From the NCBI GenBank assembly GCA_002783105.1, contig PFJN01000016.1:15034-79033 (forward strand): a stretch of DNA of 64,000 bases, in the 5' to 3' direction. Shown here one piece after another: positions 1,349-52,338 of this stretch (the first letter of the stretch is position 1; each line of letters starts with the position of its first letter). The translations under genes and the position numbers were made by a program. A model generated the notes under the pieces. That model ran no database searches. It was not told the DNA's origin and saw only the letters and a program-made list of their open reading frames with translations. Source of the DNA: Candidatus Pacebacteria bacterium CG_4_10_14_3_um_filter_34_15. GTDB lineage: Bacteria > Patescibacteriota > Microgenomatia > UBA1400 > PJMF01.

Positions 1349-3952
1349 TTATTTTTTCAAATATTGTTTGATATAAATCCATTTGAAAATTTCAATTGAG
1401 GCAATTACCCCAAAGCTAATTGTAAAGACAATTAACCAGTCTGTGAGACTCAAAGCAGTAGTCCCCAATAGATTTTGCAGAGGTTTTAAATGAACTGAAA
1501 AGATAGTTAAAATTATTCCAAATAATGAAGCTATGACAAGCCACATATTTTTAAAAATAGATTCATGCCAAATATTTTTAGTTAACGATCTACAAGAAAA
1601 AACATAAAGAAGTGAATCAATACTAAGAGTTGCAAAAACCATTGTTCTAGCGAGTTCTTCGCCCCTTTGTTGCCAATCAATCCAGAAAATCGCAAGACAA
1701 CTAAGGGCAGTTGTTAAGGAGATAATTATAATGAGAAATAGCATCTCGTTGTCGATAAGTCTTGTTTTTGGAGAAAGTGGTTTCCTTTTCAAGAGATCAT
1801 GGTCCTTGGGATCAATTGTCAGCGCTAAGTTTGGCAGGCCATCATCAATTAAATTTATCCATAAGATTTGTACGGCCGTAATTGCGGCTGGCCAACCCAT
1901 CAGAAGACTAACTAAAACAATTATAATTTCAGAAAATGAGTCGCTAAGTAAATACAAGGCCACTTTTTTTAGGTTTTCAAGCATCGATCTACCTTCTTCC
2001 ACAGAGGCAGTAATTGTTTCCATATTAGAATCTAGTAATATTAAATCAGCAGTCTCTTTAGCAATTTCACTTGCTTCTTCTACAACTATTCCTATATTAG
2101 AAACAGCTAGTGCAGGGGCATCATTAACTCCATCACCCATCATTCCAACGATTTCCCCATTGGCTTGCAAGGCCTTTACAATTCTAAGTTTTTGAGATGG
2201 TTTGGTTCTGGAAAATAAGAGAATTGAGTTAACTCTGCTTTTTAGTTCGTCATCGCTCATTTTTTCTAGTTCTTGTCCTTCGATAATCTGATCACTTTTG
2301 ACATTAAAGCCTATTTTTTCCATCACAGCCAATGCAGTAGTTCTAAAATCTCCAGTGATTACTTTTATATTAATTCCAGCTTCTTGGGTCTTTTTAATAG
2401 AAGCTTTTACTGAAGGCCTAATAGGATCATCAAAGGCCATTAAACCTAGCCAATTTATTATTTTTTTATTAACATCATCTTTTTTAAGTTTTGAAAATAC
2501 TTCTTTTGCTTCATCATCTGATTCGCATTTAATATATGCAAAACCAATCAACCGTCTTCCTTTTTGGGCCCAGTTTTCAATTAGATTTTCATATTCGTTA
2601 ATGATACTTGTGGTGGAATTAGAACGTAATAACATTTCTTCAGGAGCTCCAGAAAGATAAATAAATTCTTTGTGTCTGGTAGCTAGAAATCTTCTTTCAA
2701 CAGAGAAGGGAATAATTTCGTCTCGTTCTTCTTGTAGAACTAATTCTTCAGGGGCAACCAATTTATTTTTTGTTACTCCTATACTATTGTCTTTGGAAAC
2801 TTTTAATGCCCACTGCCATCTAGCGAGTTCAATTGGATCTTTAAGATCATTTGCTAGCGTACTAGCTTTATAAGCAAAAAGTTTGTCGGTTAGTTTAGTT
2901 TCAACTACTCTCATTTTTCCCTCAGTAAGGGTTCCAGTTTTGTCGACACAAACCGTAGTTACGCTTCCTAAGGTTTCTGCAGCGACTAAAGATTTAACTA
3001 AGCCTTTTCTTTTCAGAATTCGGTGCATGCCAATCGCCAAAATTGCAGTTAGCCCTACCACGAGACCTTCTGGAATGGCAGCAACTGCGAGAGCAACGGC
3101 TGTTGTAAACATTTCAATTGGATCTTTTTTCAATACTATTCCAGTTATAAAGATCAATATTGAAAGTAAAATAATTCCAATTGTTATAAACTTTGCAAGT
3201 TGATCGAGTTTTACTTCAAGAGGGGTTTTAACCATTCTATTTTCTACTAAATGTGCAGCTATCTTGCCCATTTCAGTTTTCATTCCTGTCGAGGTGACGA
3301 GAACTTTTCCTGAACCACCGACTACGGTTGTGCCCATATATAAGATATTGATAGTTTTAGAGTTGTTTGTTTTAGTAGCCTGAATGATAAATTCATTGAT
3401 TGTTTCTTCAGAAATATGACTTTTAAATTCTTTTTTTGAGACAGGAACGCTTTCACCAGTTAATAGTGCTTCATTAATTAGCAAATCATTGTCTTCGATA
3501 ATAATTCCATCCGCAGGAACTTTATCACCTTCATAAAGTACTACAATATCACCCGGAACAATCTTAGAAATTTCAATTTTGATTTTCTGGCCAATTTTTT
3601 CAAAATCATTATTTCTAATTACCCAGGCTTCATGTGTGACAACTTTTTTTAAAGCATCTAGAGATTTGTAAGCTTTTCTTTCTTGAATAAAGCCCAAAAT
3701 GGTATTAACAATTATTGCCAAAGATATTACAAAGGCGTCTGAAAAATCACCAACAATAGCAGTAATTATAGTTGCAATTATTAAGACTAAAACTAAAGGA
3801 TTTTGAAATTGTTTAAAAACAAAATATAAATCTGTAGGTGGTTTTTTCCCAACTAATTGATTTGGGCCGAATATATCAAGCTGTTTTTTTGCATATTCGC
3901 TATTTAATCCAGATGATTTTAATTCATTAAGGGAAAAAATAGATTCATTCAT
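1349..3952 (-). CDS. P2-type cation-transporting P-type ATPase (Ca2+/Mg2+-ATPase-like)
   Basis: 867 aa with the DKTGTLT phosphorylation motif, TGES, PEGL (which marks type P2), GDGVNDAPAL, and multiple TM helices. Confidence 0.9.
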   Translation of the reverse strand: MNESIFSLNELKSSGLNSEYAKKQLDIFGPNQLVGKKPPTDLYFVFKQFQNPLVLVLIIATIITAIVGDFSDAFVISLAIIVNTILGFIQERKAYKSLDALKKVVTHEAWVIRNNDFEKIGQKIKIEISKIVPGDIVVLYEGDKVPADGIIIEDNDLLINEALLTGESVPVSKKEFKSHISEETINEFIIQATKTNNSKTINILYMGTTVVGGSGKVLVTSTGMKTEMGKIAAHLVENRMVKTPLEVKLDQLAKFITIGIILLSILIFITGIVLKKDPIEMFTTAVALAVAAIPEGLVVGLTAILAIGMHRILKRKGLVKSLVAAETLGSVTTVCVDKTGTLTEGKMRVVETKLTDKLFAYKASTLANDLKDPIELARWQWALKVSKDNSIGVTKNKLVAPEELVLQEERDEIIPFSVERRFLATRHKEFIYLSGAPEEMLLRSNSTTSIINEYENLIENWAQKGRRLIGFAYIKCESDDEAKEVFSKLKKDDVNKKIINWLGLMAFDDPIRPSVKASIKKTQEAGINIKVITGDFRTTALAVMEKIGFNVKSDQIIEGQELEKMSDDELKSRVNSILLFSRTKPSQKLRIVKALQANGEIVGMMGDGVNDAPALAVSNIGIVVEEASEIAKETADLILLDSNMETITASVEEGRSMLENLKKVALYLLSDSFSEIIIVLVSLLMGWPAAITAVQILWINLIDDGLPNLALTIDPKDHDLLKRKPLSPKTRLIDNEMLFLIIIISLTTALSCLAIFWIDWQQRGEELARTMVFATLSIDSLLYVFSCRSLTKNIWHESIFKNMWLVIASLFGIILTIFSVHLKPLQNLLGTTALSLTDWLIVFTISFGVIASIEIFKWIYIKQYLKK

Positions 3953-4065
3953 CTTTTAATCTTATTATTTATTGATCTGATGTGCAATAGACCCATGTAC
4001 AAGATTCACGTACCTTTGTTAAAAACAATGTCTTTTGTTATAGTAGATTATTAGGAAAATTGATT

Positions 4066-4929
4066 ATGCCAGATAAATTTACAGCTACTTGGGTTTCTCA
4101 TTCATCAATTGGAGACTTTTTAAAATGTTCCAGATCTTATTATTTAAAAAATATCTATAAAGATCCAAATACTGGAAATAAACTACAACTTACTTCAGCA
4201 CCACTATCTTTGGGATCTGCAGTTCATGAAGTTATTGAAGCTTTATCTGCAATTCCAACTAAAGATCGTTTTAAGGATTCTCTTCTAGAAAAATTTGATA
4301 ATGCATGGAAAAAATATTCAGGCAAAATAGGTGGTTTTATAAGTGAAGCGCAGGAAGAAGAATTTAAAAAGGAAGGTCAAAAAATGATCAGGAAAATCAT
4401 TCAAAACCCCGGTCCTTTAAAGACTCTTTCAGTTAAAATCAAAGAGGATCTGCCATATTATTGGTTATCAGATGAAGACAATATAATTTTATGTGGCAAG
4501 ATTGATTGGCTTGAGTACTTACCAGCTACTGATGGAGTTCATGTCATTGATTTTAAAACTTCAAAAAAAGAAGAAGATGAAAACTCTCTTCAACTTCCCA
4601 TTTATCATCTTTTAGTTAAGAATACTCAAAATAGAAAAGTCGAAAAAGTAAGTTATTGGTATCTTCGATTGAGTGATAAATTACAAGAACAACCATTGCC
4701 AAATTTGGAAGAAGCTCATGAGAAAATTTTGGCAATTGCAAAGAAAATGAAAACTGCGCGTAAACTCAATGTTTTTAAATGTCCTGAAGGAGAGAATGGT
4801 TGCTTTGCATGCAAGCCTATAGAGTCAGTAATACGTGGGGAAGCAGAATTTGTTGGTGTTGGTGGTTACAAAAGAGACGTCTACATTTTGAATTCCCAAG
4901 AAGTTGATAATAGTAGTACTATTTTATAG
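4066..4929 (+). CDS. PD-(D/E)XK nuclease superfamily protein, Cas4/AddB-like with a 4-Cys cluster
   Basis: There is an N-terminal Cys (FLKCSRSYY), and the nuclease motifs GKIDWLEY and VIDFKTSKK fit a D..E/D-x-K pattern. The C-terminal triad CPEGENGCFACKP gives C-x6-C-x2-C. An ATG at 4066 is preceded by AGGAAAA, and the track's TTG at 4060 is in the same frame. Confidence 0.6.
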   Translation: MPDKFTATWVSHSSIGDFLKCSRSYYLKNIYKDPNTGNKLQLTSAPLSLGSAVHEVIEALSAIPTKDRFKDSLLEKFDNAWKKYSGKIGGFISEAQEEEFKKEGQKMIRKIIQNPGPLKTLSVKIKEDLPYYWLSDEDNIILCGKIDWLEYLPATDGVHVIDFKTSKKEEDENSLQLPIYHLLVKNTQNRKVEKVSYWYLRLSDKLQEQPLPNLEEAHEKILAIAKKMKTARKLNVFKCPEGENGCFACKPIESVIRGEAEFVGVGGYKRDVYILNSQEVDNSSTIL

Positions 4930-4938
4930 TTTTTTTGT

Positions 4939-5247
4939 ATGCTGGTTTTGCGGTATACTTATTCCATGAAAGAAAGTATCAGTGATTTACAGACTAGTAT
5001 TAATGAATTAGAGAAATCAGTCTCATTTTTGGGGGAACAAATTAGAAAGCAAAATTCATATAGAAGAAATGTTAGTTTATCTGTAGTACGTGGATTTAGC
5101 ACAGCGGTGGGAGCCACAGTTATTTTTGGTGTTATTTTGGCTTTGCTAGTTAAAACTATTAGTTCAATTGATTATGTTCCAATAATCAACAATTTAATGA
5201 GTTCAGAGGCTATTGAAAGTTTTATTGCTAAGTTTACGCAACCGTAA
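4939..5247 (+). CDS. hypothetical small membrane protein (one predicted TM helix)
   Basis: The 102-aa ORF is tightly packed between neighbouring genes and has a hydrophobic segment, AVGATVIFGVILALLV. An alternative ATG lies at 4966. Confidence 0.4.
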   Translation: MLVLRYTYSMKESISDLQTSINELEKSVSFLGEQIRKQNSYRRNVSLSVVRGFSTAVGATVIFGVILALLVKTISSIDYVPIINNLMSSEAIESFIAKFTQP

Positions 5248-5272
5248 TTTGTTATAGTAATAAGTAGTAATT

Positions 5273-6040
5273 ATGTCCCAAAATTTAAAATTTACTACAG
5301 CAATTAGTGGCAATACTTCTCAGGGTTTAGTTTTAAGAAATCAAAAGTTGGAGGGCTTAATCAAAGAAGCTGATTTTGTAAGCACATTTTTTCTTTCTTT
5401 AGTTGGCCGAAAGCCAAAAGATGCAGAAAAAACAATTTTGAACGCTATTCTAGTTTCTGCGATCGATCACGGAATTAATCCTGCAAGTGGATTTGTACCT
5501 CGCGTAGTAGCTTCTTCTGGGGGAGATGTTCTTTCAGCCATGGCTGCTTCATTGTTAGCAATAGGGCCATATCACGGTGGAGCTATTTCGGCTGCTATGA
5601 ATATTTTTAAAACTATCAATGAAGAAGGTTCTGACATCGAAAAAGCTTGCAATAATTTAGTTGATTCATATAGTGTTGATAAAAAAAGAATTCCAGGATT
5701 TGGTCATCCGGTTTATAAAGATTTCGATCCTAGAGCAAAAGAATTATTTGATTTAGCAAGAAAAAATGACATGGATATTCAGTTTATGAATATCGCCAAA
5801 CAACTCGAACATTCATTGGATGACAAGCTGAGTTACAAAATAAAGAAAAAATTAATTTTGAACATTGATGGAGCAATTGCTGCCTTGCTATTGACCATAG
5901 GAATTGACTCAATGGCTGGTAATGCTATTTTTGGTTTGGCAAGAGTAGCGGGGAGTATTGCTCACATTGTTGAAGAGCAAAAATCTGATAAAGGTGTCAG
6001 GCGTCTTACAGATGAAGATGTGGAGTATATATCAACATAA
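5273..6040 (+). CDS. citrate synthase family protein, short form (citryl-CoA lyase-like)
   Basis: 255 aa containing GFGHPVYKDFDPRAKEL, the citrate synthase GFGHRVY signature with the catalytic His. The PYHGGAISAAMN region matches the CoA-binding region. It is too short for a full citrate synthase. Confidence 0.6.
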   Translation: MSQNLKFTTAISGNTSQGLVLRNQKLEGLIKEADFVSTFFLSLVGRKPKDAEKTILNAILVSAIDHGINPASGFVPRVVASSGGDVLSAMAASLLAIGPYHGGAISAAMNIFKTINEEGSDIEKACNNLVDSYSVDKKRIPGFGHPVYKDFDPRAKELFDLARKNDMDIQFMNIAKQLEHSLDDKLSYKIKKKLILNIDGAIAALLLTIGIDSMAGNAIFGLARVAGSIAHIVEEQKSDKGVRRLTDEDVEYIST

Positions 6041-6091
6041 AATAGTGTTATTATTTTGTTTTGAAATAAGTAGGTAAATTGGAGAAAACTA

Positions 6092-6769
6092 ATGAACGTA
6101 ATCACATATTTAATCAGTTTTATTTTGCATTTAGATCAACATTTAGCTGAAATAATTTCAGCCTATGGATCACTAACTTATCTGATTTTCTTTTTAATTG
6201 TTTTTGCAGAAACCGGCTTGGTAGTATTTCCTTTTTTACCAGGTGATTCATTATTATTTGCAGCCGGGACATTTGCGGCTCTTGGTTCTTTAAATTTTAT
6301 AGCTACATTTTTAATTTTGTTTATTGCTGCAGTTCTTGGAGATTCAGTAAATTATTGGATTGGAAATATCTTTGGGAAAAAAATTGTTGATAATCCTAAA
6401 ATTACTTTTATTAATCAAGAGCACATTGATAAAACAGAAGCATTCTATAAAAAATACGGTGCTAAAACAATTATTTTAGCTAGATTTGTACCAATTGTCC
6501 GTACCTTTGCTCCATTTGTTGCTGGAGTTGGTAAAATGAATTATCAGCATTTCTTTGTATATAATGTTCTAGGAGGTTTCGCTTGGGTGACACTATTCAT
6601 GACACTTGGATACTTCTTTGGAAATGTTGAAATCGTCAAAGAACACTTTTCAGTTGCAATACTAGCAATTATTGGTATATCAGTTATTCCAATGGTCGTA
6701 GAATACATTAAGCAGAAAAATACTCCATCTACTCTAATTAAAGTTCTAGAAAAAGTTGTTAATAAATAA
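6092..6769 (+). CDS. DedA/SNARE-associated family membrane protein
   Basis: It carries the VFPFLPGDSLLFAAG motif and the multiple TM helices typical of the DedA family. Confidence 0.8.
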   Translation: MNVITYLISFILHLDQHLAEIISAYGSLTYLIFFLIVFAETGLVVFPFLPGDSLLFAAGTFAALGSLNFIATFLILFIAAVLGDSVNYWIGNIFGKKIVDNPKITFINQEHIDKTEAFYKKYGAKTIILARFVPIVRTFAPFVAGVGKMNYQHFFVYNVLGGFAWVTLFMTLGYFFGNVEIVKEHFSVAILAIIGISVIPMVVEYIKQKNTPSTLIKVLEKVVNK

Positions 6770-6777
6770 CAAATTTT

Positions 6778-7356
6778 ATGGAATATCCAAAATCATCTCA
6801 GCCAATGCCCAAAACTGCAAAGCAAGTTTTTAAGGGAAAAATTTTTGAAGTTTGGCAGTGGCAGCAAACCATGTTTGATGGCTCAGTTAAAACTTTTGAA
6901 AAAGCAAAAAGAAATTCCTCAGTTGGAATTTTTCCAGTTACAGCAGATGGAAAAATTATTGTCACATCACAAGCACAGCCTTTAATGAAGCCATTTATTA
7001 GTTTAATAGGTGGTGTTGTTGATGAGGGTGAGTCTCCATTAAAGGCCGCTGAGCGAGAACTCATGGAAGAAGCAGGCTTTCAAGCAAAAAGTTTAGATCT
7101 TTGGTTTTCTGTTCAACCAGTCACAAAAATTGAGTGGCCAATATTTATATATATTGCAACAGGTTGTAAAAAAGTTGCCGAGCAAACTTTGGACTCTGGT
7201 GAAAAAATTAAATTAAAGTATGTCGATTGGGATGAATTTCTCGAAATAGTTGTTCAGGATGATTTTAGAGATTATGAAATTGCTTTGAGGTTTTTAAAAG
7301 CGATGCAGAGAGAAGGCGAGTTAGAAAAAATTAAGCAGCTTATTTTTTCGCAATAG
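6778..7356 (+). CDS. NUDIX hydrolase
   Basis: The Nudix box GGVVDEGESPLKAAERELMEEAGF matches the consensus GX5EX7REUXEEXGU. Confidence 0.75.
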   Translation: MEYPKSSQPMPKTAKQVFKGKIFEVWQWQQTMFDGSVKTFEKAKRNSSVGIFPVTADGKIIVTSQAQPLMKPFISLIGGVVDEGESPLKAAERELMEEAGFQAKSLDLWFSVQPVTKIEWPIFIYIATGCKKVAEQTLDSGEKIKLKYVDWDEFLEIVVQDDFRDYEIALRFLKAMQREGELEKIKQLIFSQ

Positions 7357-8323
7357 CTTCTATAGCTAATTTTATTTCATTTTCATGTGTATGTGCCAAA
7401 AAGCCAATAAAAATTAAAATATTTTCTGCTATTGAGCCAATCCCAGGAGTATTTTCTTGATTTTTTAGCAACACAAAATCAGTTCTTTTTCCTACGGAGT
7501 TCATTAAATAAAATTTATCATCGGTTAGTTTGACAAACCCCTTAATTCTAAAGATATTTTTTGGAGTTTCATTAATCGTTTTTTCTAATTCATCTTTGTT
7601 AAATTTCCCAAGTGGCTTGAGATTAAAGGTTTGAATTTGATCTTCTTGAATGTGGTCTGTGTTTGGTTGACCAGCATTTGGATTTTCAACTTCTGCTAGC
7701 AAAGTGGGCAAATCTTTTGAGTTAAGGCCAAAAACAAGTTTTGATGAGATTTTTCCGTTCGGTGCCTCAATAATTGGTGAGTGAGCATTCAGTTCACGAA
7801 CATAACCAACCACTGCTTTTTTTTTGGCAATATCGACTAGCTCAATTTTATTAAAAATTATTAAATCGGTAAATTTGGTTTGGTTTTGGGCGGTGACGCT
7901 AAGATCTTTGTAGCCTTCAAAATTTACTACATCAATTATTCCAATTACTCCATCACGAGCTAAATTTGGATGCAAAGAAATCATCAGAGCAAGTGCTGAG
8001 GGATCGGCGGCTCCAGAAGCTTCAATAATTATTTTGTCTGGTGAAAAAGTTTCGACAATTTCGTTAATTGAGCTAATGAACGGTCCAACTAAAGTGCAAC
8101 ATATACAACCATTTAAAAGCTCTTTGGTTTTTATGCCCTTACCTTCTAAAACTTTGCCGTCTATGTCAGTATCACCAATTTCATTTTTAATATAAATGAC
8201 TTGCTGGTTATTTGCTTGGAGTTCATCTATCAAATTTGAAATAATTGTTGTTTTTCCAGATCCTAAAAAACCTGAAAAGACAGTGGTGGGGATTTTGTTT
8301 TTTTGTATTTTTAGTTCATTCAT
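7340..8323 (-). CDS. COG0523/CobW-family GTPase (putative metallochaperone)
   Basis: It has a P-loop, GFLGSGKTT, and a GCICCT metal-binding motif. Confidence 0.75.
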   Translation of the reverse strand: MNELKIQKNKIPTTVFSGFLGSGKTTIISNLIDELQANNQQVIYIKNEIGDTDIDGKVLEGKGIKTKELLNGCICCTLVGPFISSINEIVETFSPDKIIIEASGAADPSALALMISLHPNLARDGVIGIIDVVNFEGYKDLSVTAQNQTKFTDLIIFNKIELVDIAKKKAVVGYVRELNAHSPIIEAPNGKISSKLVFGLNSKDLPTLLAEVENPNAGQPNTDHIQEDQIQTFNLKPLGKFNKDELEKTINETPKNIFRIKGFVKLTDDKFYLMNSVGKRTDFVLLKNQENTPGIGSIAENILIFIGFLAHTHENEIKLAIEAIAKK

Positions 8324-8338
8324 AAATTGAGTTTTGAG

Positions 8339-9145
8339 TTATAAACATTCTAGATTTTTATGAGAAAGTATTCCAAAATTAACTCCACTGGCGCTTGATT
8401 CGATAATTTTAACTTTCCATTTATTCTCAAATTCTTTCATTTTCTTTTGGGTGTGAGTGATGTCTAACTCTAGTAAGATTTCACCATTTTTTGAAAGTTG
8501 CTCTTCAGCTTGTTTCAAAAGTTTTCTAACTAAGTCTAATCCATCTGGTCCGCCATCCAATGCTAAGTGAGGTTCAAAATCTTTTACTGAATTGTCTAGA
8601 ATTTTTATTCTAGCCGATGGAATATATGGAAGATTGGCAATAATTAAATCAATACTGTTATCAGGATTGCCAAGTTTGTCAAGGTTTACACGATCATTAA
8701 GTTCAGCTAATAGATCAGATTTAATGAAACTTATTGGAAGTTTTGGATTAATATTCTGTAAGTTTATTCTAGCTATTTCTAGTGCGTCGAGTGAAATATC
8801 TAGGCCAGTAATTTGAAAGGCTATTCCTAATTTACTAAATTTTTTAGCTACACTAATTGCGATAGCTCCAGAGCCAGTGCCTACATCAACAATTTGGAGA
8901 ATTTGATTATGATTATTCTTTTTGCCAAGAATTTCAGATTTATTAACAGCCAATTCAACTAACTCTTCAGTTTCAATTCTAGGAATAAGTACGCTGGGAG
9001 ATACTAATAAATCTAATCCGAGAAACTCAACATGGCCTGTTATATATTCTACAGGTGCGTCCGTGTTCAGCAATTCTTCAAGATTTATTCCATATTTCAG
9101 CATTTGATTTTTTTCGTACGGAGTGAGTATTCTTTTATTAAGCAT
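8339..9145 (-). CDS. prmC: release factor glutamine N5-methyltransferase PrmC/HemK
   Basis: It has a SAM-binding motif, VDVGTGSGAIAI, and the NPPY-type catalytic motif IIANLPYIP. Confidence 0.8.
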   Translation of the reverse strand: MLNKRILTPYEKNQMLKYGINLEELLNTDAPVEYITGHVEFLGLDLLVSPSVLIPRIETEELVELAVNKSEILGKKNNHNQILQIVDVGTGSGAIAISVAKKFSKLGIAFQITGLDISLDALEIARINLQNINPKLPISFIKSDLLAELNDRVNLDKLGNPDNSIDLIIANLPYIPSARIKILDNSVKDFEPHLALDGGPDGLDLVRKLLKQAEEQLSKNGEILLELDITHTQKKMKEFENKWKVKIIESSASGVNFGILSHKNLECL

Positions 9146-9277
9146 GAATTCTTTAATTTAGAGTCTAAACTACTACATTTAATAGTACTTGTATTTTTTG
9201 TTATTTTGTACGAAGATAAAAAAGCATCTCAAAGTTGCAAATTTATTATTCATTATAACAATAGAAAGATATAACAA

Positions 9278-10069
9278 ATGTCGAAAAATGATTCAAGCTC
9301 TCAAAATTCATTTTCTTTTTCAAGTTTCACAAACTTTTTCTCAGAAAATTTTGTTCTAGTAATTATGACTCTAGCTTTTCTGCTGGGAGGATTCTTTTTA
9401 GGATCCATCTGGACAGAAAATAGAATGTTAAAAGGTGCTGGCGGATCAGGATCGGGATCTCCATCAGCTCCAGCAGCAGCTGCACCAGCGGCTGATGCAC
9501 GAGATTTAACTATTCCTGGGTTAGTTAGCAAGGGTAAAAAGCTAGGCGTGAAAGAAGCTGACCTTCAAAAATGTATTGATAGCGGAGAAATGGCAGAAAG
9601 AGTTAGTGCTGATGCAGCAGGCGGTGCAGCCGGTGGAATCACAGGAACTCCTGGAACAGTTATTGTTGTAAATGGTGTCCCAGCAGAATTAATTCCTGGA
9701 GCTTTGCCATACGAACAAGTCAAACCAATGCTAGATTATTATGTAAATGGAGGTGTTATTGATCCTGTTAAAAGTGGTCCAGTCGCTGGACTTCCAGCTG
9801 TAACAGATGCCGATCATTACAGAGGTATAGCTGGTGCCAAAATAGTCTTAGTTGAATATTCAGATTACGAATGCCCATTCTGTGAGCGATTTCACCCAAC
9901 CATGACAACCGTTATGAAAGATTACGGAAATGATGTTGCTTGGGTACTGCGAAACTTCCCACTATCATTCCACCCAGCTGCACAAAAAGCTGCTGAAGCT
10001 GCAGAGTGTGTAGCCAAATTAAAAGGCAATGATGTCTTTTGGGATTATTCTGACGCATTATTCAACTAA
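9278..10069 (+). CDS. membrane-anchored thioredoxin-fold (DsbA/Trx-like) protein with CPFC active site
   Basis: An N-terminal TM helix is followed by a Gly/Ser/Ala/Pro-rich linker and an YECPFCERF CxxC motif. Confidence 0.6.
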
Positions 10070-10083
10070 GAATTAGGAGAGAT

Positions 10084-10515
10084 ATGAATCTTAAAGACCA
10101 GCTTGTTGAAGATATGAAGCAAGCCATGAGGAGTAAGGATACAGTTAAGCTTGGTGTAATCAGGTTCTTACGTTCAGAAATTAAAAATTTTGAAATTGAT
10201 AATGGCGAACAAGACGACAAAGGAGTAGTTAAAATTATTGCTTCTCAGACCAAAAAAATTAAGGATGCTCTTGTAGATTTCAGAGCTGCGGGTAGAGAAG
10301 ATTTGGTTTCTGCAGAAGAAGCAAAAGTTGCTATTCTGGAGGCATACTTGCCCCAACAAATGAGTGACGAAGACCTCAGAATCGTTGTTGCAAAAATTGT
10401 TGATGAAACTGAAGAAAAGAATATGGGCAAACTGATTGGAGCTGCTGTTAAGGCAGTTGAAGGCAAAGCTGATGGTGGCAGAGTCTCTGCTATGGTCAAA
10501 GAAAAATTGCAGTAA
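10084..10515 (+). CDS. GatB/YqeY domain protein
   Basis: The translation MNLKDQLVEDMKQAMRSKDTVKLGVIRFLRSEIKN.. matches the YqeY family pattern. An AGGAG RBS precedes the start. Confidence 0.8.
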   Translation: MNLKDQLVEDMKQAMRSKDTVKLGVIRFLRSEIKNFEIDNGEQDDKGVVKIIASQTKKIKDALVDFRAAGREDLVSAEEAKVAILEAYLPQQMSDEDLRIVVAKIVDETEEKNMGKLIGAAVKAVEGKADGGRVSAMVKEKLQ

Positions 10516-14151: not shown

Positions 14152-16464
14152 GTGGATTTAATTTATATGGACTTGCCCAACCTATTTTCAACAAATTTGG
14201 ATAAAGAAAACCAAGTGATGACAATTTTTATTCACTTGACCGATATCAAAATTCAATCATTTTTACTTTCAATTTCAGACGAAGGTGCTCAGATTTTAGG
14301 AAAATCTAGCGTTTCGGACTATGAAGGAATAGACAATTGCTTGGTTAGAGTTGATGAAAGTCTACAGCAACTTGGAAAAAAATCGGAGAAAGTGACTTCG
14401 GTTATTTTTGGTTTAAATCACGCTTGGGTCAAAAAAGGTGAGGTTACTGAGGACAAAAATCCATTATTAAAGAAACTCACCGATGATTTAGGCTTAAAAC
14501 CAATGGGTTTTATAATTATTTCTGAGGCTCTCGTTCAGCAAAAAATCTCAGCTAACTCGATGTTCTCAGGAATAATTGCAGTTTTTAGTGAGAAAAATTT
14601 AACACTCTCATTGATTCATCAAGGAAAAGTAAAATCTATAGAAACAGTAGGAAGATCATCCGACGGCAAAGGTGATTTTCTTGAGGGGTTAGCACGATTT
14701 TCTGCTAAGTCAGGAAAAGAGGGTTTCTATTTGCCATCAAAAATAATTTTAGCATCTCTAGATTTAGATGAAAAAGAACTTAAGAAACATCAACAATTTG
14801 TTTATGATTCTGATTGGACAGTTCAAACTCAGTTTTTACAACCTCCAACAGTGACGATAATCGCTCAAAATGATTATGAAGAAATGATAACTAAAGAAGC
14901 CGCAAAAGCTGTTGCTTTGCAAAAAGGTATGACAAAAGCAGCAATGGCTGTGATTACAACCAGAGATTTAGATGTCAAACAACCAACTGAGCTCGATACC
15001 GATGAATTGGGTTTTAGTGAAGTTAATCCAGAAGAAGACTTAGAATTAGCAATAGCTGATGAAGTTGTTGAAGCTGATAGTCAATCTCCAACTTCATTTG
15101 GTGTGCCAATTTCTACAAAAGAACTTGATAAGGAGCTTGCTTCTATTAATGAAAATAATCTAAAAGAGCCAGATTTTGAGGAAAATAGTGAGTCGGCTGT
15201 AGATTTTTCTGGTAAAAAGTCTAATGACGAAGATCAAGAGTATGGAGAAACAAAACATATTTTTGATAAAAATAGATCCAAAGACGTTGTCAATGGAAAA
15301 AATTTTAAGCTTTACACTTTGATTGGATTTATTGCCGGTTTAGTTGCCCTGATGGTCATTGGTTTTTTTGGAATTACAAATTTAGCAATCGCTGAAGTTG
15401 GAGTTGTCTTGGAAACTAAGGCAGTTTCTAAAGACTTAGAAATTATATTAGACACTTCAATTTCAGAAACTGATAGTGAAAAATTAATTTTGGCCGCTGA
15501 CAAAGTTTCTAAGACCGAACAATCTGAAAGCACGATGCAGACTACGGGCGTCACAATTGTTGGTGAAAAAGCCAAAGGTAAGGTTTTTATTTACAATAAT
15601 TTGGTAGCTGCTGAAAAATTGTTGACGAAGGGCACGATATTGAGTGCTGGAGATGTAAAATTTGAGCTTGACGATGATGTAACAGTTCCAGCTGCAAGTA
15701 TTCCACAGCCAACAAAATTGGATCCAGGTAAAGCTGAGGCATTTGTAACGGCAACAAAAATAGGGGCAGAGGGTAACATTGTTGAAGATACGCAACTGCT
15801 GGTTTTGCCATATGACAAAAGTTCATACTATGCAGTTGTAACAGATAATGATTTTGTTGGCGGATCAAGCCGAGAGGTTAAGGTCGTGTCAGAAGCAGAT
15901 AGAATTGAGTTGCTCGCTGATTTAAAGAAAGAGATCATTGAGAAAATAAATAAAGGATTTCAAAATGACTCTGGAAATGGTGTTTATATTTTACCATCTA
16001 ATAATATTGTTTCAGAGAAAGCTGATTTTAACTTTGAAGTAGGGAATGAAGCGGAATCTTTATCTCTCAATTTAACCTTAGAAATTGAGGCAATCAAATA
16101 TACCTCCGAAGATTTAAAACCGCTGGCCACTAAAGTTTTGGCTTCAGAAATACCTGAAAATTACAAATTATTTGATGGGGATCCTCAAATATTATCTGCT
16201 CCAACTGAAAATGCTCTGAATACTTTAGATATTACAAAGCCAGTAACTTTGTCTGTGAACATAAGTTCATTTGCAATTCCCGTAATGTCGCAGGACCGAA
16301 TTAAAGATGAAATTTTAGGAAAATCTATTGATGAAGCAAAGTTAATACTCGAGTCAAAGGATGAAATTAAAACTGTTGAAATAACTATTGATCCATCATT
16401 TGCTAGGTCTCTTGTTAGAAAAATACCTAGAAAATTAGAAAAAATAAAGATCGAGTTTAAATGA
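14152..16464 (+). CDS. large hypothetical membrane protein, cytoplasmic N-domain, central TM helix, extracytoplasmic C-domain
   Basis: 770 aa with a single hydrophobic segment, LYTLIGFIAGLVALMVIGFFGI, near the middle. No motif is recognised with confidence; there is a faint PilM/FtsA-like N-terminal pattern. The start codon is uncertain (14152, 14167 or 14218). Confidence 0.5.
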   Translation: MDLIYMDLPNLFSTNLDKENQVMTIFIHLTDIKIQSFLLSISDEGAQILGKSSVSDYEGIDNCLVRVDESLQQLGKKSEKVTSVIFGLNHAWVKKGEVTEDKNPLLKKLTDDLGLKPMGFIIISEALVQQKISANSMFSGIIAVFSEKNLTLSLIHQGKVKSIETVGRSSDGKGDFLEGLARFSAKSGKEGFYLPSKIILASLDLDEKELKKHQQFVYDSDWTVQTQFLQPPTVTIIAQNDYEEMITKEAAKAVALQKGMTKAAMAVITTRDLDVKQPTELDTDELGFSEVNPEEDLELAIADEVVEADSQSPTSFGVPISTKELDKELASINENNLKEPDFEENSESAVDFSGKKSNDEDQEYGETKHIFDKNRSKDVVNGKNFKLYTLIGFIAGLVALMVIGFFGITNLAIAEVGVVLETKAVSKDLEIILDTSISETDSEKLILAADKVSKTEQSESTMQTTGVTIVGEKAKGKVFIYNNLVAAEKLLTKGTILSAGDVKFELDDDVTVPAASIPQPTKLDPGKAEAFVTATKIGAEGNIVEDTQLLVLPYDKSSYYAVVTDNDFVGGSSREVKVVSEADRIELLADLKKEIIEKINKGFQNDSGNGVYILPSNNIVSEKADFNFEVGNEAESLSLNLTLEIEAIKYTSEDLKPLATKVLASEIPENYKLFDGDPQILSAPTENALNTLDITKPVTLSVNISSFAIPVMSQDRIKDEILGKSIDEAKLILESKDEIKTVEITIDPSFARSLVRKIPRKLEKIKIEFK

Positions 16465-17402
16465 AAACACAACCAAAGACCGTTGTAATGCAGAGCGATA
16501 TAATTGATCTTTACAGAAATGCATTGCGACAAGGCATAGAAATATCTCAAGTTGAAAAGAAAATTAATCGCCACTTAAAAAGAATAAATGCTAGTGATCA
16601 TATTGAAAATCAAGAGGATGAGTTGAGATCGGAAAACGAAAAGAAACGATTGCCAAAAATTGTGAGGGCTGGCGCTATGGCGTTACCAATTCTATTCTTG
16701 ATAATTGGTTTTTACTTAGTTGGTAGCGCTGTCGTGCCAATCATTGGATCTTACATTATTGTTGCCAAAGATGTTCAGATGACTAATCTAACTTCTCCAG
16801 TACCTCGGGAGCAAGTGATGGACGTTACGCCTTTAGTTATAACTCAAAGTAATATTCCAGAAAAAGTTGATCGTGATTTGAAAATTATAAATGAAGAGCT
16901 AGATTACACAAATCTTTCAAACTGGTTTAGCTCAACTACGCTACCTGAATTTGGTTTGCCAGAACTTGATTATGATATTACTGAATATACGATTGATATT
17001 CCTAAATTAAATATTAGCAATGCTATAGTGAGAGTTGGTGGCAATAATCTTAATGAAAATCTCATCGCCTTTAAGGGTACTGCATTGCCAGGAAGTCCAG
17101 GTGCGCCAGTAGTTTTTGGGCACTCAGTTTTAAGACAATTTTATAATCCAAGTGAGAAAAATCCTCGAAGATATAATTCTATTTTTAGTACTATTATGAC
17201 CTTAGAAACAGGTGATAAAATATTTGTTACGTCTGGAGGAGTAAAATATACATATGCAGTTTTACTGAAGAAAGAAGTTAAACCAGAGGATGTGTATATA
17301 TTGACTCAAAAATATGATTCAAAGCAACTTAAGTTAGTTACCTGTACACCTGAAGGAACCTATTTACGTCGTGGAGTTGTTACCGCTCAACTGATAGAAT
17401 AA
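16461..17402 (+). CDS. sortase family transpeptidase
   Basis: An N-terminal TM anchor is followed by a catalytic His (VVFGHSVL), a TLxTC-type Cys (LKLVTCTPEG) and a downstream Arg (LRRGVV). Confidence 0.75.
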   Translation: MKTQPKTVVMQSDIIDLYRNALRQGIEISQVEKKINRHLKRINASDHIENQEDELRSENEKKRLPKIVRAGAMALPILFLIIGFYLVGSAVVPIIGSYIIVAKDVQMTNLTSPVPREQVMDVTPLVITQSNIPEKVDRDLKIINEELDYTNLSNWFSSTTLPEFGLPELDYDITEYTIDIPKLNISNAIVRVGGNNLNENLIAFKGTALPGSPGAPVVFGHSVLRQFYNPSEKNPRRYNSIFSTIMTLETGDKIFVTSGGVKYTYAVLLKKEVKPEDVYILTQKYDSKQLKLVTCTPEGTYLRRGVVTAQLIE

Positions 17403-17409
17403 AGACCAA

Positions 17410-17615
17410 TTTTTAAAATTAAATATATCAACTGTTCGCGTTGGGACAAGCCCAAAATGCTCTCAGTTCATATATTTAATTTTAAAAAATTATCTAAGAA
17501 TAAAGGATTCGAAAAATTTCGTTGAAGTTGTTTATTTTTTTTGAATTTTCGATTAATTTCAAAATATAAGTACAAACAACGAACATTTTGGGCTTGTCCC
17601 AACGAGAGTTGTTTG
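17410..17615. repeat. intergenic structured element: two nested hairpins sharing an inverted 21-bp core (cgttgggacaagcccaaaatg)
   Basis: Copy A of the core lies at 17439-17459 and copy B, its reverse complement, at 17584-17604. Copy A is enclosed by a perfect 19-bp palindrome, 17410-17428 against 17470-17488, plus aactg/cagtt. Copy B is enclosed by caaacaac/gttgtttg, 17573-17580 against 17608-17615. Confidence 0.5.
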
Positions 17616-17653
17616 AATTTATATTTTGAGGATCATTACTTGAATGAAAAATT

Positions 17654-18061
17654 ATGAATAATCCTGAAGATTCAATATTAGCAATTGATTTTGGAACGGT
17701 CAGGATTGGCCTAGCAATTTCAAGGTATATTTTGGCAGAGCCTTTAGAAATAATTTATAATGATGAGTCCAAATTTCAAAAAATTAAAGAAATTTGTGCA
17801 ACTCATAATATTAAAAAAATTATTGTAGGTCTGTCAGAAAATGAAATGGCAAGGATGACTCAGGTTTTTGCGGCTGAACTTGAAGCAGAAATTAAATCTG
17901 AATGGGAATATAAACCTGATCTAGAATACGTAGATGAAACTTTGAGTTCTCACTCAGTTCACGAGAGATTAAAGTCAGCTAAGAAATCTAAAAGAAATGC
18001 AAATATTGATCACTATGCTGCCTCTGTGTTTTTGCAAGATTGGTTAGACGAAAACTTTTGA
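17654..18061 (+). CDS. ruvX: Holliday junction resolvase-like protein YqgF/RuvX
   Basis: It has the ILAIDFGTVRIGLAIS N-terminal motif and is 135 aa. Confidence 0.8.
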   Translation: MNNPEDSILAIDFGTVRIGLAISRYILAEPLEIIYNDESKFQKIKEICATHNIKKIIVGLSENEMARMTQVFAAELEAEIKSEWEYKPDLEYVDETLSSHSVHERLKSAKKSKRNANIDHYAASVFLQDWLDENF

Positions 18062-47094: not shown

Positions 47095-47610
47095 ATGGCA
47101 TTAAAATTAAATAAAAAGAAAAAAATCATCAAAAAAATTGTTAAAAAATCTAAACCAGTTAAAAAGCTTGTGAAGAGAATTGAGTCTGAAACTTCTTCAA
47201 ACTTAACAGTTCCAACCGGAAAATACTACGAAGCAGTTGGTAGAAGAAAAGTTGCAACCGCTAGAGTTAGGCTTTATGAGTCTGAAGGCGATTTTATCAT
47301 AAATGACAAGCTTGTAGGTAAGTATTTTGACACCATCAGTGATGCAAAATTAAGATATAACAATCCATTTGAATTAACTGGCACAAAAGGCAAGTTTTCA
47401 GTTATTGCTAAAGTTTCAGGATCTGGATCTTCTTCACAACTAGATGCAGTTGTTCATGGCATTGCTAGAGCATTAGTTAAATATGATGAATCATTCAGAT
47501 TATTGCTTAAACCAGCAGGACTAATTACTAGAGATGATAGAATGAAAGAAACTAGAAAAATTGGTATGGGTGGTAAAGCAAGAAGAAAGAGACAATCTCC
47601 AAAGCGTTAA
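47095..47610 (+). CDS. rpsI: 30S ribosomal protein S9 with lysine-rich N-terminal extension
   Basis: A roughly 40-aa K-rich leader is followed by the S9 core (..YYEAVGRRKVATARVRL.. ..GGKARRKRQSPKR). Confidence 0.9.
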   Translation: MALKLNKKKKIIKKIVKKSKPVKKLVKRIESETSSNLTVPTGKYYEAVGRRKVATARVRLYESEGDFIINDKLVGKYFDTISDAKLRYNNPFELTGTKGKFSVIAKVSGSGSSSQLDAVVHGIARALVKYDESFRLLLKPAGLITRDDRMKETRKIGMGGKARRKRQSPKR

Positions 47611-47615
47611 ACTTT

Positions 47616-48407
47616 TTAACTTCCAACTCCTGAATATTTTTTCAAAGCCCAGTTCCAAAATTTTAAACTTGCAATTAAACTTCCAACTCCTACAAGAATT
47701 GTTACAAAAATACTAAATGAGGGTTTGACACCTAATAAAACTTCGGTAGGAATTGTGATCATCATTCCAATGGGGATAATAAAGAAAAGCACAAACCGTA
47801 ATGGTTGCATGTACATTCCAATTGGAAATCTGCCCATTGAACTTAAGTCACGATAAATCCAAATAATTCCTTCAGTTTCAGTTGTAAGAATACCAATAGA
47901 TAAAATTAGGATATTTATGGCGGTAATGATTAATAAACCATTTGTTACGAGAATTAAATACCATACAAGTGATAACCAAGTTACAGAAATATCAAGATTA
48001 TTGAAAATATAAAAACTTACAGCTAATGAAGGAATCATAAAAATAGCATCATTTATATCAGGTTTACCGGTTAAGGCTCTAAACAAAGGATTGATAGGTT
48101 TAGTTAAATAAGCATCAAAAGATCCTAATCGAACTTCATTACTAAATACATACGTACCTCTATAAAAAATTTGACTAATTAAATCTATAAATTGATATGT
48201 GAGAAAAAAAACAATCATTTGAGCTGAAGTATATCCTGCAAAACTACTGACTGTATTTTTAATTAAAAACAAAAAAATTAATGAAAATGAAAAACGCAGT
48301 ACTTTGCCGATCATGAATAAAATGTTTGAGCCCCTATTTACAAGATTCTCTTGAATGGCGTTAAAGCCAAAAATTTTCCAAACATTAAAATATGTTTTTA
48401 GTCTCAT
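47616..48407 (-). CDS. ABC-2 family transporter permease (paralog 4 of 4)
   Basis: It is 263 aa with 6 predicted TM helices and the motif EVRLGSFDAYLTKPINPLF, shared in variant form by the other three permeases. Confidence 0.7.
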   Translation of the reverse strand: MRLKTYFNVWKIFGFNAIQENLVNRGSNILFMIGKVLRFSFSLIFLFLIKNTVSSFAGYTSAQMIVFFLTYQFIDLISQIFYRGTYVFSNEVRLGSFDAYLTKPINPLFRALTGKPDINDAIFMIPSLAVSFYIFNNLDISVTWLSLVWYLILVTNGLLIITAINILILSIGILTTETEGIIWIYRDLSSMGRFPIGMYMQPLRFVLFFIIPIGMMITIPTEVLLGVKPSFSIFVTILVGVGSLIASLKFWNWALKKYSGVGS

Positions 48408-48413
48408 ATTAAT

Positions 48414-49205
48414 TTAGATACCTACTGATTCATAAGATTTCAATCCCTTTTTCCAAATTTTATTTGTGATTGTTCCCAAAATAAATATCCAAAAAACTAG
48501 AATAACTGTATGTTTAAGAATGTCTTGGGAATTAAGTCGATTTAGAAATAATTGAATTTGAACAAAAGATAGGTATGGAAAAGGCGTAAGGTAAATTATT
48601 TTCTGGAGCATAATTGGTAAAATATCTAATGGAAAAAGTTTTCCAGCTGTAAAATCTAGAATCATGAAGAATAAAAACTTTGGTCCCCATACTTGAGGGC
48701 TCCAAAAACCCAAACTACCGAAAAGAAGTGTGATAATAAAATTTAAAATTAAACCTCCAAATGACCATATTAAAAATAACAAGAATAATTTCAAATCAGG
48801 AAATACAATAATTGGTTTGAAAATTAAAAATAAAAATAGAGATTCCAAAAACAAGAAAAGTAGATTCTTAATTTTGTCCGCAATTTCTTGAATTGCGAAT
48901 AGACCAAATAAATTAATTGGTTTCAATAAATAATTACTAATTTCTCCAGAGTATAGTCTACTTGCTAGGCCATTAAGAGAAGAAGCGATGATCATACTTT
49001 GCAAGAAGGCAACTAAGAATATATAAGTAATCATGCTCTCTTTAGAATAGCCAAAAGCACTGTTGTTTGAGGTAAAAATCACTGTCCACACAGTTAGAGA
49101 CATAAGGCTGGATAAGAATGACCTAAGACGCCATGTGAAGAGACTTAACCTATATACTAGACTGTTTTGCCAGGTTATTTTAAGGAGTGTTAAATATTTG
49201 GTCAT
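48414..49205 (-). CDS. ABC-2 family transporter permease (paralog 3 of 4)
   Basis: It is 263 aa, multi-TM, and carries SGEISNYLLKPINLF. Confidence 0.7.
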   Translation of the reverse strand: MTKYLTLLKITWQNSLVYRLSLFTWRLRSFLSSLMSLTVWTVIFTSNNSAFGYSKESMITYIFLVAFLQSMIIASSLNGLASRLYSGEISNYLLKPINLFGLFAIQEIADKIKNLLFLFLESLFLFLIFKPIIVFPDLKLFLLFLIWSFGGLILNFIITLLFGSLGFWSPQVWGPKFLFFMILDFTAGKLFPLDILPIMLQKIIYLTPFPYLSFVQIQLFLNRLNSQDILKHTVILVFWIFILGTITNKIWKKGLKSYESVGI

Positions 49206-50189
49206 TTAATGGATTTTCTTAGCGCCAAAGATCTCTCGAATCACAACTTCTATTGGAACTTCTTCAATATTCAAATCATTAACTTTAAATTGATTTAAAA
49301 TTTTAGAAGCTATCTTAGTTGCTTCTTTGCGAGGCACTATCAAAGTTGCTTGGTTATTTTTGAATGATTTTACAGTTCCAAATTGTTCGAGATCATTTTT
49401 TGTTATTGAGTTTTCAAGTGTCAGTGAAAGAATTTTATTTCGAGCATATTTATTAATAATGTCAGCTAATTTGCCATCATAAACTTTATGACCTTTATCG
49501 ATAATTATTACTCTTTCACAAAGCTCTTTGACATCGCCCATGTAGTGGCTAGTTAAAATGATTGTTGCTCCAAATTCTTTATTGTAAGTTTTAATGAAAT
49601 CTCTTAAGGTTTTTTGCATGACGACGTCTAAACCAATAGTTGGTTCATCTAAAAATAAAACTTTTGGATTGTGAAGCAAGGCCGCAATAATCTCACACTT
49701 CATTCTTTGACCTAGCGACAGTTTTCTAACCTGAATTCTTAAAATATCTTCAACATCTAAAATTTTTGATAGCTTTGCTAATGTTTCATCAAAAATTTTA
49801 TCCGGAATTTCGTAAATTGCTTTATTTAGGTGAAAGGATTCAATTGCTGGTAAATCCCACCAAAGTTGGTTCTTTTGTCCCATGACCAAGGCAAATTGTT
49901 TTTGAAATTCAGGTTTTCTATCCCATGGATTAAATTCTAAAACAGTAGTTTTTCCATCTGTTGGGTATAAAAGACCAGAGAGCATTTTTAGTGTGGTGGT
50001 TTTTCCAGCCCCATTTTGACCGATAAAACCGACAATCTCACCTTCGGCAATTTCAAAACTAACATCATCAACTGCTTTTACAGTTTCATAACTTCTTTTC
50101 CAAAGAGATTTAATGGAGCCCCAAAGTCCAGGTTCTTTTTTATAGACTTTGAAATATTTTTTTAGATTGCTGACTTTAATAGTGATCAT
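49206..50189 (-). CDS. ABC transporter ATP-binding protein
   Basis: It has Walker A GQNGAGKTT, an LSLGQRMK ABC signature variant, and Walker B LFLDEPTIGLD. Confidence 0.85.
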   Translation of the reverse strand: MITIKVSNLKKYFKVYKKEPGLWGSIKSLWKRSYETVKAVDDVSFEIAEGEIVGFIGQNGAGKTTTLKMLSGLLYPTDGKTTVLEFNPWDRKPEFQKQFALVMGQKNQLWWDLPAIESFHLNKAIYEIPDKIFDETLAKLSKILDVEDILRIQVRKLSLGQRMKCEIIAALLHNPKVLFLDEPTIGLDVVMQKTLRDFIKTYNKEFGATIILTSHYMGDVKELCERVIIIDKGHKVYDGKLADIINKYARNKILSLTLENSITKNDLEQFGTVKSFKNNQATLIVPRKEATKIASKILNQFKVNDLNIEEVPIEVVIREIFGAKKIH

Positions 50190-50221
50190 TTATGCCTTTC
50201 AAGCTATCTTTTTATTATACC

Positions 50222-51010: not shown

Positions 51011-51018
51011 TATTTATA

Positions 51019-51819: not shown

Positions 51820-51895
51820 GTTGCTATTTTAGCACCTCTGGGACGATCTACCCAATAAGAGTTTAGGTTCTATGATTAGGAGACTGTTCATTATC

Positions 51896-51924
51896 AAAAA
51901 CCCCCGCTCGAGCGGGGGTTTAAT
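51896..51924 (-). terminator. rho-independent terminator downstream of the HU gene
   Basis: A perfect palindrome, cccccgctcgagcggggg at 51901-51918, is flanked by an A-run on + (51896-51900). On the minus strand this reads as a stem followed by TTTTT. Confidence 0.75.
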
Positions 51925-51959
51925 ACTTTTATTTTAAATCTACCAAGTAGCTTTTTAGT

Positions 51960-52235: not shown

Positions 52236-52338
52236 TTTTATTCCCTTTTAATAATTATTAATTAGCCTCATATAGAGCGACTTAGATCAATCATTATCAC
52301 TTATTTTCTTCAGCTGTCAATCTTCAAAATGTTGCAAA

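Follow-up and report, generated by a model that had tools for sequence, protein, structure and literature searches.

Inverted copies of a dispersed palindromic repeat family between a sortase gene and ruvX in a Candidatus Pacebacteria genome

What kind of element fills the gap between the sortase gene and ruvX of Candidatus Pacebacteria bacterium CG_4_10_14_3_um_filter_34_15 is the question we address here. We analysed a 64-kb stretch of this genome (contig PFJN01000016.1), referred to as the window in the following, in which an initial annotation had pointed out a gap of about 250 bp holding a 21-bp perfect inverted repeat within longer palindromes. It offered three readings, i.e., a miniature inverted-repeat transposable element (MITE) with the 21-mers as terminal inverted repeats, a pair of operators for DNA looping, or a structured non-coding RNA. 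We find that the palindromes form two hairpins, A and B, which are separate, oppositely oriented copies of a dispersed and previously undescribed palindromic repeat family. The spacer itself is rather likely a small cluster of this family, comprising two intact units of opposite orientation and possibly a decayed third one, and is similar in kind to repetitive extragenic palindromic sequences (REP), to the bacterial interspersed mosaic elements (BIME) and to Rickettsia palindromic elements (RPE). This reading draws on the family as such, its structure, its turnover at orthologous sites and a copy within a gene, all of which we observe.

Sequence inspection bears out the layout described by the initial annotation. 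The gap measures 251 bp and separates the end of the sortase gene (stop at 17402) from the beginning of ruvX (17654). The 21-mer CGTTGGGACAAGCCCAAAATG occupies 17439-17459 on the plus strand, and its exact reverse complement is located at 17584-17604. Allowing for up to three mismatches, no other match exists in the 64-kb window and none arises in 100 dinucleotide shuffles. The enclosing stems are present as well (Table 1): the stem of unit A is a perfect AT helix of 19 bp that is lengthened by AACTG/CAGTT, and in unit B CAAACAAC is paired with GTTGTTTG and lengthened to 22-nt arms of 91% complementarity. The small palindrome noted in the region between the units is CGAAAAATTTCG at 17511-17522. 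Folding of both strands yields energies of -24.5 to -33.8 kcal/mol for the two hairpins; relative to dinucleotide shuffles, their z-scores range from -6.2 to -8.7, i.e., both are far more stable than shuffled sequences. Unit A reaches -29.6 kcal/mol (z = -7.9) and unit B -24.5 kcal/mol on the minus and -26.9 kcal/mol on the plus strand.

Searching the genome collection for the exact 21-mer returned a single other locus, L001 from a metagenome-assembled genome of the candidate phyla radiation (CPR), where it again forms the tip of a hairpin. A second hairpin lies 50 nt upstream of it, with the inner stem TCGAA/TTCGA instead of TTGGG/CCCAA and with the flanks CTCTCG and AAT.TTCG as well as the loop ACAAG retained. 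Comparing the 21-mer locus with L001 gave the degenerate core pattern CTCTCG N5 ACAAG N5 AAT N TTCG, which has 17 matching loci in the metagenome collection. Eleven of these combine a perfect 5-bp inner stem with an AT-rich outer stem of 14-28 bp; the remaining six have neither stem and were rejected as chance matches. A looser pattern and a covariance model added further copies, including the loop variants ATCAG, AGCAG and AGTTC. Overall, there are about 20 further copies in related CPR genomes, most of them single, and the hosts form a small group of ultra-small, Woesebacteria-like bacteria. Copies occur, among others, in the assemblies GCA_900089805.1, GCA_017999345.1, GCA_020632265.1 and VFLK01 and on contig k141_824607 of ERZ27293372. 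In the covariance model R1, from which unit A had been left out, unit B obtains 85.8 bits and unit A 74.5 bits (E = 9e-13); the next best match in the window reaches 19.5 bits.

The 19 kb of the same contig that extend beyond the window hold no copy of the repeat. Two scans of viral contigs using degenerate core patterns gave no match either, so that nothing points to an origin from phages. The window's own contigs were not returned by the pattern scans of the genome and metagenome collections, although unit B fits the pattern exactly and contigs from the JGI that carry unit B exist. The collections are therefore incomplete for this organism, so that copy counts are lower bounds and negative scan results are limited likewise. 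A dense arrangement was seen at L025, where four units, all in sense orientation, fall within 6.5 kb (3888-10395) of an 11-kb stretch. There, they punctuate a row of unrelated genes, i.e., those for an RNase H-like protein, a NUDIX protein, SufC, a second NUDIX protein, SufB and an NTPase. The local density of units in L025 is far above that of the window's genome.

The repeat unit shared by A and B exceeds the 21-mer and comprises the whole hairpin, i.e., 71-83 nt in the window. In general, a unit measures about 70-90 bp and consists of an outer stem of 20-27 bp that is rich in AT and keeps its pairing despite sequence drift, an invariant asymmetric internal loop (CTCTCG on the 5' side, AATGTTCG on the 3' side), a 5-bp inner stem that varies by compensatory substitutions only, and a 5-nt loop that is usually ACAAG. 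Units of 71-88 bp with 18-32% G+C fold with -15 to -33 kcal/mol. We aligned 17 copies without gaps over 93 columns (alignment A1). Its invariant positions comprise CTCTCG and AAT.TTCG together with the first base of the loop; conservation of the outer stems is just 50-80%, and the inner stem occurs as TTGGG/CCCAA, CAGGA/TCCTG, TCGAA/TTCGA or CAGAC/GTCTG.

For the tested structure of 24 outer and 5 inner pairs, 84% of the alignment cells are standard pairs, and 25 of the 29 pairs are altered on both sides. Neither this pairing nor this covariation is matched by any of 500 shuffles, and sliding the 3' partner by 1-3 columns lowers the pairing to 36-50%. The pattern of pairing and covariation thus identifies the unit as a nested hairpin, in which a variable stem carries an invariant asymmetric internal loop and a mini-hairpin of which only the structure is conserved.

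This anatomy bears directly on the looping operators that the initial annotation had considered, i.e., a pair of palindromes TTGGG-N5-CCCAA (TTGGGACAAGCCCAA) bound by a dimeric regulator. The window indeed offers two identical 15-bp palindromes at a distance of 145 bp from centre to centre. In other copies, however, TTGGG and CCCAA are replaced by unrelated complementary sequences and it is the non-palindromic flanks that are invariant, a covariation that contradicts operators of this kind. Furthermore, single copies are the rule, copies follow unrelated genes, and the close relative L011 (93% identity) has no element at this site. We thus regard an operator pair as hardly credible.

A different comparison is suggested by the occurrence, in a CPR genome, of variable palindromic stems whose loop carries short conserved motifs, namely with TIGR (tandem interspaced guide RNA) arrays. 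These are present in CPR bacteria and consist of tandem stem-loops having two 8-12-nt spacers flanked by box C/D motifs, located beside a gene for the Nop-domain protein Tas; some of the CPR arrays are variable palindromic stems around conserved loop motifs (PMC12045711). The likeness of the hairpins to such guide-RNA units is superficial. Their loop spans just 29 nt with two complementary 5-mers as its variable parts and without C/D-box sequences, the units stand alone and scattered between housekeeping genes, and a Tas (Nop-domain) gene is not found nearby. The chance that the hairpins belong to a TIGR-Tas-like system is next to negligible.

We then compared the sortase-ruvX spacers of relatives, which were located via sortase homologues. 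Here, zero, one, two or three units are found. L011 (93% sortase identity) has a 15-bp spacer without any unit. In L029 (92%), the spacer measures 327 bp and contains three units, of which one is without 5' arm. Two units of opposite orientation plus a 5'-truncated relic are present in L012 (83%), a single unit in L013 (81%) and none in L015 (79%). What the initial annotation had suggested to look for, i.e., additional copies and a motif conserved in relatives, is thereby found. Unit A is orthologous to the first hairpin (h1) of L029 and to the truncated relic of L012; by eye, unit B resembles h1 of L012 in opposite orientation. A second orthologous site, located behind the same 194-aa gene (94% protein identity), carries two units in L001 and one unit with a different inner stem in L025. 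Read from these comparisons, orthologous sites gain and lose the gene-less units within short evolutionary times, and units at such sites are likewise duplicated, truncated and inverted.

The 5'-truncated relics are located at 4040-4075 in L012 and, on the reverse strand, between h2 and h3 in L029. Both consist of ACAAGCCTAAAAGCGTTCG followed by the 3' arm and, judged by this remaining sequence, are units that decay in place. When comparing the spacers by eye, we also noted that 17497-17522 of the window (AAGAATAAAGGATTCGAAAAATTTCG) may be the decayed relic of a third, antisense unit with a counterpart still visible in L012 and L029; our confidence in this assignment is low, and the family covariance model gives no significant match there. 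A repeat of a different, unrelated kind occupies the same spacer in the relative of 79% identity, where about seven tandem copies of a ~17-nt repeat (GGAAACAAATCCTRAA...) are found (L015 3955-4143 and L016 3407-3595).

The comparison also tells apart a cluster of units and a single non-autonomous transposon, i.e., a MITE that extends over 17403-17630 with the 21-mers or the two hairpins as its termini. In favor of one composite element, the region as a whole forms an inverted repeat of 71 nt with 70% identity (17416-17486 and 17557-17627), and the arrangement of two hairpins recurs in L012. But most family members are single hairpins without a partner in reach, L029 has three units and L013 one, and the two units of L012 differ in their inner stems. 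The inter-unit region is not conserved among the window, L012 and L029, target-site duplications are missing, and the composite occurs nowhere else in the window or in the adjoining 19 kb. Hence, the initial annotation was right with regard to a repeated element of mobile type, while the anatomy of a MITE with 21-bp terminal inverted repeats does not hold: the 21-mers are the tips of two independent units of about 70-85 nt that are mostly single elsewhere and lack target-site duplications. As a reading of the whole spacer, a single MITE is very improbable. A 44-aa open reading frame (ORF) across the spacer (17468-17602, minus strand) was dismissed because the spacer sequence is not conserved in L012 and L029.

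Perfect 21-bp inverted repeats 124 bp apart and directly upstream of a gene would also suit an invertible promoter switch, in which a recombinase flips the ~124-bp segment in between and thereby turns ruvX-mltG on or off. A weak sigma-70-like match, TTGAAT-N18-TATAAG, can be read from the sequence at 17541-17570 but is not listed by the promoter scan, and promoter-like sites occur at chance frequency. Ten assemblies of the organism from different groundwater samples show the identical spacer in the same orientation, with neither inversion nor indel variants. Beside this, the repeats are not identical to each other in L012 and L029, whose units have differing inner stems, single units are common, and there is no recombinase gene nearby. 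We therefore consider an inverton very improbable.

Within the repeat family, the perfect match of the two 21-mers calls for an explanation of its own. Compared with its orthologue L029 h1, unit A has 5 differences among the 21 core positions, whereas it is identical to its inverted neighbour, unit B, at all 21. The perfect inverted repeat is thus best explained by homogenisation, probably in the form of gene conversion between the neighbouring copies A and B. The 29-mer core of unit B is the exact family consensus and equals the cores of L001, of h1 in L012/L023, and of L018. In unit A, the core is bordered by TTCG on the 5' side (17435-17438) and CTCT on the 3' side (17460-17463), while all other copies have CTCT 5' and TTCG 3'. 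With this exchange, the closing G-C pair no longer lies on the outer side of the internal loop but on the inner one. An origin by inversion or flip-flop was rejected, since no mechanism that we considered yields such an arrangement. Just four substitutions are needed, as both tetramers share a central TC. Unit A belongs to a subfamily with CTCACA...AAGYGTTCG flanks, and we treat its arrangement as a likely product of drift plus partial gene conversion.

One member of the family resides within a gene. At L024 (1414-1506) and L028 (4293-4385), a unit lies in frame within the gene of a 587-aa multi-pass membrane protein without Pfam match and is translated as ...YKFIKISRRNKFEMFAFKKFIKNI... in a loop of the protein. 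Homologues of this protein are numerous, and in an alignment of 21 of them the unit falls on an additional segment of about 24 residues that is flanked by a hydrophobic stretch on either side. Only the closest homologues have this segment, in progressively decayed form (P0123-P0125, P0127-P0129), and the more distant ones are without it. It is a single in-gene site among about 20 copies. In-frame residence within genes is characteristic of RPEs (PMC10969869), and such a copy makes little sense for a terminator or an operator.

The other copies are found in spacers, and their surroundings have no gene in common. The adjoining genes are unrelated housekeeping genes and encode TrpRS/TyrRS, a tRNA-binding protein, a MiaB-like protein, MacB/FtsX, NUDIX, SufC, SufB, DnaB and DnaJ/NusA. 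None of the genes called near the copies encodes a transposase, a recombinase or a Nop-domain protein. Direct repeats, i.e., target-site duplications, a common target and a T-run are all missing from the flanks of 20 units; target-site duplications of old copies could have been lost. With respect to orientation, 13 of the 17 independent copies are sense to their flanking genes, 13-38 nt after the stop codon, and the other four, including unit B, are antisense at 24-68 nt upstream of the next start codon. This bias fits an RNA-level constraint as well as strand-specific insertion relative to replication. The two are inseparable here, as the GC skew runs in the direction of the genes.

The strongest competitor draws on exactly this bias. 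It states that the hairpins are host cis-acting RNA elements of 3' untranslated or intercistronic regions, e.g., hairpins that define transcript ends or stability, sites for RNase III or RNase Y, or sites of an RNA-binding protein at the conserved internal loop, which spread by duplication owing to their usefulness. Beside the 13 sense copies, it can refer to the strong covariation of both helices together with invariant single-stranded loop nucleotides and very stable folds, and to the orthologous spacers that stay occupied in several relatives. It is also kept alive, as is a protein-binding role, by six paralogues with an identical 29-nt core and diverged outer stems. Four copies, unit B among them, are however antisense to the only genes around. 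In addition, L011 has its 15-bp spacer without elements despite 93% identity; thus, they are not needed between sortase and ruvX.

Further observations speak against RNA elements. No T-run follows the hairpins, and around the spacer both promoter-like and terminator-like sites occur about as often as expected by chance, with a terminator scan that gives 1 site where 1.4 are expected. We counted 26 G-U pairs on the sense strand against 31 on the antisense strand, with no consistent advantage in folding for either. These similar counts give no sign of selection on one transcribed strand, while they do not decide between an RNA and a DNA hairpin. Rfam has no match in the window at gathering score; at permissive thresholds, only sub-threshold hits to generic long-hairpin models (miRNA precursors) are listed. 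The structured non-coding RNA of the initial annotation hence finds no backing in Rfam or in a G-U strand asymmetry, and one copy lies within a coding sequence. An RNA-level side effect of the units, e.g., a stable transcript hairpin, may still occur. We rate host RNA elements as an unlikely, though seriously competing, explanation.

When weighing the dispersed mobile-type repeat that we prefer, several observations count against it. Neither a transposase nor a REP-associated tyrosine transposase (RAYT) nor any other candidate enzyme is seen among the Pfam domains of 64 kb plus 19 kb of the own genome and of about 2-20 kb around the other copies, and such an enzyme may not exist. No target-site duplication or target is visible, such that mobility is inferred from presence/absence patterns alone. 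The bias towards sense copies shortly behind stop codons could equally mean a function at the RNA level. The copy number is low: the roughly 83 kb covered of the window's genome hold one locus, and at least nine copies are spread over three FLOH contigs (~690 kb in total, read in short stretches around the matches). Four of the six relatives are occupied at the same spacer, for which retention for a function could take the place of repeated insertion. Finally, six paralogues share an identical 29-nt core while their outer stems diverge, which implies selection or conversion/homogenisation on the core at each site and thus more than a purely selfish relic.

A mechanism for the repeat family would then read as follows. 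In vivo, the unit would form its hairpin within single-stranded DNA or within RNA, where the invariant single-stranded flanks and the structure-only mini-hairpin would serve a trans-acting protein as recognition module. This putative protein could, by analogy, be a structure-specific transposase or nuclease for single-stranded DNA of the type that acts on REP or on IS200/IS605 ends, and it would copy or maintain the units. The 21-bp inverted repeat is the shared core, probably homogenised by gene conversion between neighbours. At the window's site, the elements are probably dispensable passengers in the alaS-to-ruvX-mltG gene row and, as a side effect, would place two very stable hairpins into any read-through transcript.

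A more specific version is offered tentatively, i.e., as possible but well short of probable. The 5-bp mini-hairpin with CTCTCG and AATGTTCG around it, which caps an AT-rich palindrome that is easily extruded, may be the recognition and cleavage site of a structure-specific CPR protein. This could be part of a new REP/RAYT-like transposition system that uses single-stranded DNA, or a domesticating host factor, e.g., for transcript processing or a replication-associated role. Such a site, if real, would explain the identity of the core in paralogues with diverged stems.

REP and BIME are among the closest known systems. In Enterobacteria and Pseudomonas, they are mobilised by RAYT Y1 transposases. 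Like the units described here, they are imperfect palindromes of small size and without genes, which mostly occupy short spacers behind genes, frequently within operons, occur singly or in inverted clusters and have no target-site duplication. Compensatory changes of the stem and a copy number and orientation that vary at orthologous sites are shared as well. The REP-like layout recurs in the inverted pairs of the window and L012 and in the tandem pair of L001. The differences are considerable: with 71-88 nt, our units are two to three times longer, one is intragenic, and they occur in tens rather than hundreds per genome, with no RAYT seen in the local neighbourhoods and with a CPR host. Moreover, REPs conserve the stem foot with its 5' GTAG-type tetranucleotide, whereas here the asymmetric internal loop and the mini-hairpin at the tip are conserved. 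Such a foot tetranucleotide is absent, i.e., conservation in A1 is lowest in the columns of the outer unit ends and all invariant positions are apical.

The ends of IS200/IS605 elements are hairpins in single-stranded DNA that serve HUH Y1 transposases, with a structure-only hairpin beside sequence-specific single-stranded nucleotides. The units resemble them in this module architecture, in lacking a target duplication and in their orientation bias relative to gene or replication direction, an analogy of form only. They differ in that no transposase gene, no pair of left and right ends and no defined target tetranucleotide was found. Intrinsic terminators, which consist of a G+C-rich stem followed by a T/U run, are different as well, since the units are AT-rich and no T-run follows the full hairpins.

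With RPEs, the units share the setting, i.e., palindromic repeats in the reduced genome of a host-dependent bacterium that reside between genes and in frame within genes, where the gene gains a peptide segment and is not destroyed (PMC10969869). RPEs, with a length of about 100-150 bp, often lie in genes and belong to a different lineage, while just one in-gene site exists among our ~20 copies. We claim no similarity in sequence; no RPE sequences were compared. Common descent with RPE families is implausible because the host here is a CPR bacterium and that of RPEs belongs to the Rickettsiales.

Hairpin-type MITEs of bacteria (ERIC, Correia/CREE, QMITE2, SPRITE) are AT-rich, shorter than 500 bp and intergenic, often in 3' untranslated regions, with stable stem-loops in transcripts and truncated copies (PMC10969869). 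The units agree with them in being AT-rich, shorter than 500 bp and mostly intergenic, in their stable stem-loops and in the occurrence of truncated copies. MITEs are, on the other hand, defined by conserved terminal inverted repeats derived from a parent insertion sequence (IS) and by direct repeats, while our units show the least conservation at the termini and the most in the centre, without direct repeats. An IS with ends that match the units is neither known nor was one found. Taken together, a new family within the general class of small dispersed palindromic repeats is the best-supported assignment.

CPR/Patescibacteria genomes of about 1 Mb are tightly packed and usually called poor in repeats and mobile DNA. 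Full-text literature searches returned no REP- or MITE-type family described for this group. A palindromic family with turnover at orthologous sites, an in-frame copy and an invariant structured core indicates that small non-autonomous elements operate in such reduced genomes, and it accounts for unusually long, hairpin-rich spacers of its hosts. The 29-nt core provides a defined bait for a protein that recognises it. On the practical side, the family can confound the prediction of terminators and non-coding RNAs as well as assembly, and could serve as a marker for strain typing. It opens no long-standing question.

Table 1. Annotated parts of the sortase-ruvX spacer and its flanking genes (positions in the window).
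Feature	Position	Strand	Description
Sortase gene (PF04203)	16461-17402	+	upstream flank, outside the element
Repeat unit A	17408-17490	+	83-nt palindromic hairpin, sense; begins 6 nt past the sortase stop
Unit A outer stem	17410-17428 / 17470-17488 plus 17430-17434 / 17464-17468		inverted repeat I2
Unit A apical core	17435-17463	+	TTCG-CG-TTGGG-ACAAG-CCCAA-AATG-CTCT; holds 21-mer 17439-17459
Inter-unit spacer	17496-17558	no strand	AT-rich
Repeat unit B	17559-17629	-	71-nt palindromic hairpin, antisense to flanking genes; ends 24 nt before the ruvX start codon
Unit B outer stem	17559-17580 / 17608-17629		inverted repeat I3
Unit B apical core (minus-strand reading)	17580-17608	-	CTCT-CG-TTGGG-ACAAG-CCCAA-AATG-TTCG; holds 21-mer 17584-17604
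ruvX (PF03652)	17654-18061	+	downstream flank, outside the element

Some observations concern the wider surroundings. Directly upstream of the sortase gene, and overlapping it by 4 nt, is the gene of a 770-aa protein without Pfam match (14152-16464), which may be a sortase substrate or a surface protein. In one population (L005/L009), this gene is split into ORFs of 479 aa and 287 aa and the locus is offset by one base, which suggests a frameshift variant. The window contains no tRNA or tmRNA genes. Its part from 47600 to 61300 is a block of minus-strand genes that include, by Pfam labels, FtsX/ABC, RF-1 and a peptidase C39-like gene; the block has a lower G+C content (0.30-0.33) and a flat or negative GC skew, in contrast to the plus-strand region with rpoBC and ribosomal protein genes. 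Further intergenic palindromes with weak model matches of 19-26 bits and without the conserved core are found at 53855-53908 of the window and at 20550-20613 of L035; these, e.g., AGAATAATACTTTAAAGTATTATTCT, look like ordinary hairpins of the terminator type.

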